The translations under genes and the position numbers were made by a program. Below the pieces are notes generated by a model. That model saw nothing but the letters and a program-made list of their open reading frames with translations, was not told where the DNA came from and ran no database searches. Shown piece by piece: positions 15,901 to 16,984 of a DNA stretch of 64,000 bases (position 1 is the stretch's first letter; each line of letters starts with the position of its first letter). This stretch comes from Christensenellales bacterium (GTDB taxonomy: Bacteria; Bacillota; Clostridia; Christensenellales; JBMNTQ01), in contig JBMNTR010000005.1 in assembly GCA_050945835.1 (NCBI GenBank), positions 10,196 through 74,195 on the forward strand, written 5' to 3'.

Positions 15901-16984
15901 GCTGTGTGAAGGGGACGATGTGATGCATCTGCTGGAGGCGGGCAAGATCAGCTATATCATATTCACAGGCGCGGGCGACGACGCCATACGCGATTACACC
16001 CGGCTGCACCGGCGCGCCATACAGCTGAGCGTAGCCTGTCTGACATCCTTGGATACGGCCAACGCGCTGGCGGATATCATCGCAAGCCGCTACAACGAAG
16101 GCAACACGGAGCTGGTGAACATCAGCGCACTGCGCACAGAGCGCCAGAAGCTGCATTTCTATAAGATGCAGGGCTCGGGCAACGATTACATCTATGTTGA
16201 GAATTACGACCGCGCCATCTCCTGCCCCGAATCTTTGGCCATCAGCTTTGTAGACCGCCATTTCGGCATAGGCGGCGACGGGCTGGTGCTCATCGAGGAT
16301 TCAAATGTGGCCGACGCCAAGATGCGCATATTCAATGCGGACGGCAGCGAAGGAAAGATGGCGGGCAACAGCATACGCTGTGTCGCCAAATACCTCTACG
16401 ATATCAAGGGCATCCACAAGGACGAGATGTGCATCGAAACGGCCAGCGGCGTGAGGAGCGTCCGGCTTTATCTCTACAACGACCGTGTGCGTTCGGCCTG
16501 CGTGGATATGGGCAAGGTGGAACTGACACCCGAAAAAATCCCGGTGGCGCTTGACGGGGATTCCATCATCAACCGTGAGGTGCAGATCGGCAACGATACG
16601 TATTTCATCACCTGCGTATCCGTGGGCAACCCGCATTGCGTGCTGTTCTGCGACCGTGTGGACGCCATAGACGTGGCGCGCATCGGCCCGCTGTTTGAAA
16701 ATTCACCCTTATTTCCCGAGCGCGTGAACACCGAGTTCATACGTGTGGTCAACGAGACCACCATCAAGATGCGTGTGTGGGAGCGCGGCAACGGCGAAAC
16801 CTGGGCCTGCGGTACAGGCGCATGCGCGGCGGTGGTGGCGGCGGTGCTCAACGGCTATTGCAAGAAGGGCGTGGACATCACCGTGAAGGTGAAGGGCGGC
16901 GATTTGATCGTCAACTACACGGACGAATCCATCCATTTAACGGGCAACGCCGATCTGATATACGAGGGCGATGTGGCGTATTGA
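12950..16984 (+). CDS. carB: Carbamoyl-phosphate synthase large subunit fused to a C-terminal DapF-like domain
   Basis: Two ATP-grasp halves (GSGPIVIGQAAEFDY; GSGPIRIGQGIEFDY) and MGS domain, then in frame from ~16151 FYKMQGSGNDY...RHFGIGGDG...GNPHCV...ERGNGETWACGTGACA. Confidence 0.95.
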   Translation: MPLNKEIKKVLVIGSGPIVIGQAAEFDYAGTQACRVLKEAGLDVVLVNSNPATIMTDTTMADEIYLEPLTVTTIKRIIEIERPHGLLASLGGQTGLTLAMQLSKEGYLEKMGVKLLGTSASAIDRAEDRQLFKDTMAGIDQPLIPSEIANELEEATAAAQRIGYPVIVRPAFTLGGAGGGVAHDEDKLRVIAKKGLDLSPITQVLVEKYIYGWKEIEFEVIRDGAGNAAAICSMENVDPVGVHTGDSIVIAPAVTLSNREYQMLRSASLDIINALGIEGGCNCQFALNPNSFEYAVIEVNPRVSRSSALASKATGYPIAKVTAKIALGYTLDEISNDVTRITQACFEPALDYVVVKFPKWPFDKFVHASRSLGTQMKATGEVMSIAPNFEMALMKAVRGAEISMETLALPSLRNAPNIREQLHKMDDLRLFRVFEALRQGVRVEEIFAITRIDPWFLNKLKNLAEYEDMLLSGDLEEGYYLRGKKLGYLDKTIERLSGKKIECPHRVSYKIVDTCAAEFKAQTPYFYSSYDSYCEARERVSGNVPRIIVLGSGPIRIGQGIEFDYSSVHCVHTLKELGYEVVIINNNPETVSTDFDTSDRLYFEPLTEEDVMKVIEVEQPVGVVVAFGGQTAIKLTKFLSEQGIRILGTSAQSIDIAEDRERFDALLEQFNIKRPAGLGVSTMEEAFAAVEKLGYPVLLRPSYVIGGQNMTIAYTKADVEQYMRIILAQGIENPVLIDQYLMGTELEVDVISDGVDVLIPGIMQHIERAGVHSGDSIAVYPPHNLSDRLLQAVVECSEKLTLSLGTKGLVNIQYLIYRNDLYVIEVNPRASRTIPYISKVTGVPMVALATRIMVGAKLSELGYGTGLYKSPPYVAVKVPVFSFEKLSDVNSALGPEMKSTGEVLGVGKTLEEALFKGLVSAGFSLDAQRSTTRGGVYITVSRQDQFEIVQLAKKLDDLGLHIYATEGTAASIAQLGIDVTTVKKLCEGDDVMHLLEAGKISYIIFTGAGDDAIRDYTRLHRRAIQLSVACLTSLDTANALADIIASRYNEGNTELVNISALRTERQKLHFYKMQGSGNDYIYVENYDRAISCPESLAISFVDRHFGIGGDGLVLIEDSNVADAKMRIFNADGSEGKMAGNSIRCVAKYLYDIKGIHKDEMCIETASGVRSVRLYLYNDRVRSACVDMGKVELTPEKIPVALDGDSIINREVQIGNDTYFITCVSVGNPHCVLFCDRVDAIDVARIGPLFENSPLFPERVNTEFIRVVNETTIKMRVWERGNGETWACGTGACAAVVAAVLNGYCKKGVDITVKVKGGDLIVNYTDESIHLTGNADLIYEGDVAY

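Follow-up and report, generated by a model that had tools for sequence, protein, structure and literature searches.

What does the fold of diaminopimelate (DAP) epimerase do at the end of a carbamoyl-phosphate synthase (CPS), and why is it still kept when one of its two catalytic cysteines is gone? The question is raised by a fused carB::dapF-like gene in a stretch of 64,000 nucleotides from a Christensenellales genome (GenBank assembly GCA_050945835.1, contig JBMNTR010000005.1, positions 10,196 to 74,195), which is called the window below and to which all coordinates without a genome code refer. In the product of this gene CarB, the large subunit of CPS, runs on into a DapF-like domain. CPS and DapF are both textbook cases, the one of allosteric control and the other of two-base racemisation. 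An earlier reading of the same DNA, made from its letters and referred to here as the original prediction, had put the domain forward as a candidate amino-acid-sensing pseudo-enzyme. The analysis described here points to a DapF-derived domain that would no longer epimerise DAP, that is under the same constraint as the active enzyme, and that almost always occurs where meso-DAP is supplied in another way.

The DapF-like domain of the fused CarB

The fused gene is organised as follows.

12950..16984 (+): fused carB::dapF-like gene, a single open reading frame (ORF) of 1,344 codons plus stop
12950..16090 (+): CarB proper, residues 1-1047, matched by NF003671 with 1425 bits (cut-off 599)
16097..16150 (+): junction, residues 1050-1067, beginning NEGNTELVNISALRTERQ, delimited by an alignment of 13 fusions
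16151..16981 (+): DapF-like domain of 277 aa, matched by TIGR00652 and by 2otn
16361..16363 (+): GCG, Ala, domain residue 71, at the position of the catalytic Cys73 (aligned with Ser73 of 2q9h)
16370..16372 (+): AGC, Ser, domain residue 74, in place of Gly76
16808..16810 (+): TGC, Cys, domain residue 220, the equivalent of Cys217, by which the second catalytic cysteine is kept

Both the ORF list and the translation show the frame to be open and free of stops across the CarB/DapF junction. The CarB part is full-length and contains two ATP-grasp halves, the oligomerisation domain and the methylglyoxal synthase (MGS)-like allosteric domain (Pfam PF25596, PF02786, PF02787 and PF02142; CPSase_L_D1, D2 and D3, and MGS). 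Residues 1069-1342 correspond to a complete DapF: the TIGR00652 model scored 274 bits within the whole protein and 279 bits when 16151-16981 was taken alone (cut-off 114.65), the match covered model positions 2-269 of 270, and two Pfam DAP_epimerase stretches (PF01678) were found in the domain. The closest solved structure was that of Bacillus anthracis DapF (2otn, E 5.2e-72), whereas the O-ureido-serine racemase DcsC (7vdy) gave a much weaker match (4.8e-36). By these E values the domain is DapF proper; the link to DcsC drawn in the original prediction is therefore weak, and a DcsC-like identity was rejected. A bifunctional DapF of the Chlamydia type was likewise rejected, since NF038284, which describes the bifunctional DapF/glutamate racemase, gave 111-115 bits and did not reach its cut-off of 350.

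Residue numbers below follow Haemophilus influenzae DapF and were transferred through an alignment to its C73S chain, 2q9h. The first active-site motif of the domain reads GSEGKMAGNSIRC, and where DapF has its two-cysteine acid/base pair the domain has Ala in the Cys73 column and Cys in the Cys217 column. The equivalents of N11, N64, G74, N75, N157, H159, N190, E208, R209, G218 and T219 are all present; in the H. influenzae enzyme the residues in contact with DAP are N11, N64, G74, N75, N157, N190, E208, R209, G218 and S/T219. In the work of Koo and Blanchard, single mutants of Cys73 reportedly lose epimerase activity. The assignment of the domain as a DapF paralogue that would be unable to run the two-cysteine mechanism is supported. 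On these points the original prediction was borne out: it had stated that CarB runs in frame into a full DapF fold, that the first catalytic cysteine is replaced through the Ala codon GCG, and that the second cysteine motif is kept together with the ligand-binding motifs. Compared with the free-standing DapF proteins of B. anthracis (2OTN) and H. influenzae (1GQZ/2GKE), the domain has the same fold, family, DAP-contact residues and Cys217; unlike them, it has Ala for Cys73 and Ser for Gly76, is attached to the end of CarB, and is not the only DapF of its genome.

The last point comes from a check that the original prediction had proposed, namely whether the genome has a separate intact dapF. 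Such a gene was found (G000:C16:29288-30115, 305 bits), and it encodes both cysteines (MCGNG and ACGTG), so that the route from LL-DAP to meso-DAP in this genome does not depend on the fused domain. The LL-DAP aminotransferase DapL is present (611 bits), and Ddh was not found in a profile search of the genome, which is 97.7% complete. With DapL present, Ddh not found and the free dapF intact, the cell depends on DapF activity, which an ordinary gene can provide. The fused gene is the only full CarB of the genome. As a side observation, the only LysA-like match in the genome (G000:C16:50509-51729) scored 285 bits, slightly below the TIGR01048 cut-off of 297.9.

Two kinds of fusion and the supply of meso-DAP

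The original prediction had further proposed a domain-architecture search in which the residue at the Cys73 position is scored, and this search revealed that the fusion is widespread. When the DapF part was compared with long proteins only, 6,927 matches were obtained among 7,994 scored candidates; the best 120 of these 6,927 contained CPSase and DAP_epimerase Pfam domains without exception, and the second cysteine motif was present in 120/120. Of 111 full-length near relatives, 110 have Ala (100) or Gly (10) in the Cys73 column and one has Cys. At the level of the window's order, 301 genomes were sampled: a DapF match (TIGR00652) was obtained in 232 of them, and in at least 70 it lies in a frame of about 1,350 aa that is continuous with CarB, a figure from which weaker fused genes may be missing, as the best 150 of 293 and the best 150 of 286 matches were used. 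Given the open frame, the thousands of fused homologues and the recurrence in these genomes, an assembly or gene-calling artefact that joined carB to a neighbouring dapF was rejected and has a practically negligible probability, even though one genome, G290, with carB, a TAA stop and dapF in the same frame, demonstrates that the two genes can be separate neighbours. As had been suspected, the fusion already sits in automated annotations, where those fused homologues that have names (from Oscillospiraceae, Ruminococcaceae, Eubacteriales and similar groups) are called only "carbamoyl-phosphate synthase large subunit". The original prediction knew of no functional description; full-text literature searches likewise found no description of a CarB-DapF fusion, and the GapMind paper of 2026 (PMC13759103) treats dapF but, by a search for terms in its main text without supplements, not this fusion.

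Seventy fused domains from the order were fetched and aligned together with that of the window, 71 in total. They were of three kinds, for which the number of DapF matches per genome is given.

Both cysteines kept: 31 forms; one DapF match in 26 genomes, two or more in 5
Cys73 lost (Ala 22, Gly 6, Ser 9): 37 forms; one DapF match in 2 genomes, two or more in 35
Cys73 kept, Cys217 lost (Tyr or Ser): 3 forms; one DapF match in 3 genomes, two or more in 0

A second DapF is defined here by the count of TIGR00652 matches per genome; eight of the 35 second copies, including that of the window's genome, were read, and all eight have both cysteines. A second DapF or Ddh accompanies the Cys73-less form in 36 of the 37 genomes: 35 have the second DapF, and G095 (Gly73, a single DapF match) has Ddh at 457 bits and no DapL. 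The exception to the pattern is G293 (Ser73), in which DapL is present and neither Ddh nor another DapF was found at 91% completeness. Two of the three forms that lost Cys217 were checked (G102 and G245), and their genomes have Ddh and no DapL. The fusions with both cysteines, judged from their sequences, appear to be real bifunctional enzymes, because they are usually the only DapF of the genome. Among five genomes in which such a fusion is the sole DapF, three (G020, G018 and G239) have DapL without Ddh, one has both and one has Ddh only; in the first three, with DapL, no Ddh and only the fused DapF, the fused domain must be a working epimerase.

Fusions that lack Cys73 tend to occur together with another source of meso-DAP and next to arginine genes. 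Gene context was compared at 32 loci, picked non-randomly from match lists and probed with the window's own proteins. The pair argF-carA lies directly upstream in 15 of 18 Cys73-less loci plus the window, versus 0 of 14 Cys73-bearing loci, and six of these 15 have the whole argCJBDF row. Six loci of Cys-intact fusions were examined in full: purF (G036 and G020) or a glnA-like gene (G152) stands upstream in all three that were scanned, pyrG (CTP synthase) is directly downstream in three confirmed cases with an ORF of the same size in a fourth, and dapL follows in three. The Cys-intact fusions (G018, G020 and G239 among them) thus resemble the window's protein in their architecture and in the same fixed-length junction; unlike it, they have both cysteines, are usually the sole DapF, and have purF or glnA upstream, some also pyrG and dapL downstream, and no arg operon.

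A maximum-likelihood tree, built quickly from 104 DapF domains, places most of the fused domains together (SH-aLRT 83). The window's domain is placed in a starred clade of 26 Ala/Gly forms with ten family codes, a second starred clade comprises 8 Ser/Ala forms, and two further Cys-less forms are nested in Cys-intact clades; the state of Cys73 changes at least 4 times on this tree. One clade of 35 Cys-less forms, a group chosen after viewing the tree, was not rejected (p-AU 0.175). An underpowered sign test on 3-4 independent pairs only found the second-DapF trait to go in the same direction in about 2 of them and never in the opposite one (p 0.25-1).

G290 provides a clue to how the fusion arose. 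It has two CarBs, one fused and of the Ser73 type, the other unfused (1,066 aa) and ending in TAA; four codons past this TAA, in the same frame, a two-Cys dapF starts (locus L077, G290:C13:17009-17866, minus strand). The fusion is therefore one stop codon away from a neighbour pair, and the arrangement looks like the one that preceded fusion. Since Cys-intact fusions, which the original prediction had not noticed, exist, are often the sole DapF and have a different neighbourhood, the window's form may be regarded as a derived state of a true bifunctional enzyme. Ancestrally, the protein would have been a true bifunctional enzyme, encoded in a carA-carB::dapF cluster that was preceded by purF or glnA and, in many cases, followed by pyrG and dapL. 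Where the fusion came to end an argCJBDF-carA operon, another dapF or Ddh would have supplied meso-DAP, and the fused domain of this lineage would have lost its Cys73 acid/base. The comparative series that leads from a neighbour pair through an apparently active fusion to a disabled, conserved domain is what the present analysis adds to the original prediction.

Unfused CarB also occurs beside or instead of the fusion. Of five other genomes with Cys-less forms, three have an additional unfused CarB and two have the fused CarB only, as in the window's genome. In G001, the only further genome sampled from the window's family, CarB is unfused (1,073 aa, C53:4614-7748) and there is a single free-standing DapF, so that this second genome of the family lacks the fusion. 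Two other architectures were also noted. P0123 (512 aa) joins an ornithine/aspartate carbamoyltransferase N-terminal domain to a CarB allosteric tail and a Gly73 DapF-like domain; it is probably a deletion derivative or a chimeric assembly of an argF-carA-carB::dapF operon. P0218 (687 aa) combines a class I/II aminotransferase domain with a two-Cys DapF and thus gives DapF a further fusion partner, an aminotransferase that is likely to act in the DAP pathway.

Constraint on the disabled domain and its possible role

The disabled domain is constrained as strongly as active DapF. Ratios of nonsynonymous to synonymous substitution (dN/dS, NG86 method) were 0.05-0.33 with a median of 0.09 for Cys-less fused domains (10 pairs; 2 of 12 were saturated), 0.02-0.135 for Cys-intact fused domains (12 pairs) and 0.10-0.14 for free DapF (3 pairs), all of them rough figures, since dS is above 1 in many cases. 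Measured against the carbamoyl-phosphate-synthetic domain, the divergence of the DapF-like domain was 1.63 in the Cys-less group (21 pairs) versus 1.53 in the Cys-intact group (15 pairs), and the mean identity within the Cys-less group was 57% in the DapF-like domain versus 49% in the adjoining allosteric domain. The loss of a catalytic residue in a domain still under purifying selection is one mark of a pseudo-enzyme, and the original prediction of one is backed by this unchanged constraint together with the second DapF or Ddh in 36 of 37 Cys73-less genomes.

The constraint extends to the pocket. In 127 sequences of the Ala/Gly type, with a mean pairwise identity of about 63%, the equivalents of N64, G74, N75, H159, N190, E208, C217 and G218 are 100% conserved and those of N157, R209 and T219 are 98-99% conserved; N11 alone among the pocket positions varies, with Asp in 55 of the 122 sequences of the Ala type. 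Constant differences between Cys-less and Cys-intact fusions were found at domain positions 18 (Asn vs Cys), 71, 201 (Asn vs Asp) and 214 (Asn vs Ser). At the position of Gly76 (domain position 74), 98 of the 111 near relatives have Cys (53) or Ser (45), whereas the Cys73-bearing forms compared have Ala or Gly and never Cys or Ser. The Cys or Ser at this position may be a relocated thiol or hydroxyl, or may compensate for packing.

The attachment of the domain to CPS is also conserved. The junction at about residues 1050-1067 (...SRYxExNTELVDINxMRKxKxK...) shows zero indels across 13 fusions of both kinds, and the N and L of its NTEL are invariant (13/13). The alignment of the window's CarB with that of Escherichia coli stops 22 residues short of the C-terminus of the latter, and such an alignment end, together with the fixed length of the junction, leaves essentially no free linker. 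E. coli CarB ends at residue 1073, whereas in the window's protein a domain of 277 aa follows no more than about 20 residues past the last aligned position of the allosteric domain. The MGS-like allosteric domain itself is kept, as are the equivalents of E. coli T977, K993 and T1042, which are T, K and T in the window's CarB; in E. coli CPS these residues serve the effectors UMP and ornithine, and the Lys at K993 is crucial for UMP binding (PMC6245113). The possibility that the extra domain substitutes for a lost canonical effector site was hence rejected for the window. Two side observations concern the same region: the K993 equivalent is Lys in 6/6 Cys-intact fusions versus 3/7 Cys-less, arg-operon fusions (the window keeps Lys), and the mean identity of the allosteric domain is 49% in the Cys-less group versus 60% in the Cys-intact group.

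CPS dimers form via the regulatory domains (PMC6245113), and DapF homologues dimerise via their N- and C-terminal strands (PMC13728532, a structure paper of 2026). Two parts of the fused protein were modelled with AlphaFold2 (AF2) from alignments of 13 sequences only, with the following mean per-residue (pLDDT) and overall (pTM) confidence.

Residues 935-1344: mean pLDDT 87.6, pTM 0.68, pLDDT of the junction below 50
Residues 553-1344: mean pLDDT 79.2, pTM 0.69, pLDDT of the junction 63-79

From these comparisons we infer that the domain no longer serves as the diaminopimelate epimerase of the cell, and that it would be kept for a second role, which most lineages would fulfil with an intact DAP-type pocket. 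We give roughly even chances to the proposal that this role is that of a ligand-binding, non-turnover module acting on the activity or assembly of CPS. According to it, selection would retain the fold, the short fixed junction, the whole DAP-type pocket and Cys217; the domain would bind DAP or a nearly isosteric amino acid without turning it over, and it would influence CPS by being rigidly joined to the allosteric domain, the one that makes the CPS dimer contact in E. coli, and by dimerisation of the DapF type. Arginine and citrulline, nearly isosteric with DAP, could occupy the pocket by structural reasoning. A more specific version, which we put forward tentatively and consider rather doubtful, is that the domain might be a new allosteric input on CPS, where meso- or LL-DAP, or the isosteric citrulline or arginine, bound unturned in the kept pocket, would tune CPS activity or assembly; its bolder variant would be a one-cysteine enzyme with new chemistry (Cys217-His159-Glu208). 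There is a known case of a DapF fold acting through protein contacts without catalysis: E. coli DapF(C73A,C217A) has no epimerase activity, yet binds and activates RppH (PMC4227774). Unlike in the window, where the partner would be CPS and the attachment covalent, the partner in that case is an RNA pyrophosphohydrolase and is bound non-covalently.

A number of observations weigh against a ligand-binding module. In one subclade, from family f8 (8 sampled genomes), the pocket is altered (G74A, G76P, N190Y, R209K and E208D) while Cys217 and the domain are kept, so DAP binding is not required for retention everywhere. The absolute conservation of Cys217 goes beyond the need of simple binding. With the canonical effector residues kept, an extra sensor is not obviously needed, and the unfused CarB of G001 means that CPS can do without the domain. 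Forms with Ser may still epimerise, given that G293 has DapL without another DapF or Ddh. The association between the loss of Cys73 and a second DapF rests on only 3-4 independent losses, with a minimum of 4 changes on the tree. AF2 folds both domains but gives no confident relative placement with these 13-sequence alignments. Finally, both the ligand and any effect on CPS are putative.

Among the alternatives, the one that survives best, although we regard it as unlikely, is that of an entrenched structural domain that senses no ligand: the DapF fold would have been drawn into the folding or oligomerisation of CPS before it ceased to be an enzyme, and CarB of the window's lineage would misfold or mis-assemble without it. 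The conserved junction of fixed length agrees with this, as does the persistence of the domain in f8 despite the changes in its pocket; moreover, DapF homologues are dimeric (PMC13728532) and CPS dimerises via the adjoining regulatory domain (PMC6245113). A scaffold, however, would not need the polar pocket residues and Cys217 that are invariant outside f8 at about 63% identity, and the unfused CarB of the relative from the same family and the lack of confident docking by AF2 both speak against it.

It is decidedly unlikely, in our estimate, that the domain is a one-cysteine enzyme of altered chemistry, in which Cys217 with H159 and E208 would act on DAP or an isosteric substrate by stereospecific protonation, elimination or exchange, as in arylmalonate decarboxylase. 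The latter offers a precedent, being a cofactor-free enzyme on a two-Cys racemase scaffold in which Gly74 replaces the second cysteine, Cys188 is kept as the sole proton donor and a new reaction is catalysed (PMC4996985). It is like the window's domain in retaining one cysteine of such a scaffold; unlike that domain, which is known from sequence alone, it has the fold of the Asp/Glu racemase superfamily, is free-standing and has a known substrate class. Cys217 is kept in all 127 Ala/Gly-type sequences and also in the Ser and f8 clades, the near relatives with Cys or Ser at the Gly76 position (98 of 111) are Cys73-less, and N11 is frequently Asp (55 of 122 Ala-type sequences), all of which would suit an altered reaction. 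On the other hand, neither a candidate substrate nor a partner in a pathway was found, and the operon contains standard arginine genes only; many other Cys-less forms have Ala at position 76, which leaves no replacement residue common to all; and two sampled Cys-less forms (G282 and G061) have Ser at both 73 and 76.

Very unlikely, finally, is a DapF that still works and is redundant, with water, or the Ser or Cys at position 76, in place of Cys73. All substrate-contact residues are kept, the constraint equals that on active DapF, and in G293 (Ser73), which has DapL, another DapF or Ddh was not found at the completeness given above. Against this stand the 36 of 37 Cys73-less forms that co-occur with another DapF or Ddh, when 26 of 31 two-Cys forms are the sole DapF, and the published statement that DapF loses its activity when Ala replaces both cysteines (PMC4227774).

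The arginine operon and the meaning of the fusion

The remaining features of the locus are those of an operon-like row, argC-argJ-argB-argD-argF-carA-carB::dapF-like, of which the fused gene is the last member.

6635..11757 (+): argC, argJ, argB, argD and argF, NCBIfam equivalogs over cut-off (TIGR01851, NF003802, TIGR00761, TIGR00707 and NF001986)
11875..12963 (+): carA, the small (glutaminase) subunit of CPS (NF009475, 423 bits against a cut-off of 221), with a 14-nt overlap with the start of carB
17102..17124 (+): terminator-like hairpin 3' of the fused gene, a consensus match only

The real start of argF lies downstream of the ORF start at 10642. Upstream (5') of the arg operon there are a CheA-like histidine kinase gene (2430-4412, +) and a response-regulator c-di-GMP phosphodiesterase-like gene (4479-5642, -), both of which scored below the curated cut-offs. 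Long antisense ORFs run over carB, in the window at 13385-14218 (-, 277 aa) and 15707-16261 (-, 184 aa), and in a relative (L090) at 2929-7071 (+, 1,380 aa); they most likely reflect high G+C and codon usage rather than real genes.

A large group of Clostridia from the gut and the environment has a whole DapF joined to its CPS. The three states found in related genomes, namely the unfused pair, the apparently active fusion that is the sole DapF, and the disabled but conserved domain, amount to a natural experiment in the repurposing of an enzyme domain. For annotation, genomes that have only a Cys-intact fusion do have DapF, though the protein is named CarB alone, and in genomes such as that of the window the fused domain is not to be taken for the DapF. 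Should the domain prove to be a sensor on CPS for DAP, or for an amino acid related to it, this would constitute a new regulatory link between cell-wall and lysine metabolism on one side and arginine and pyrimidine metabolism on the other.

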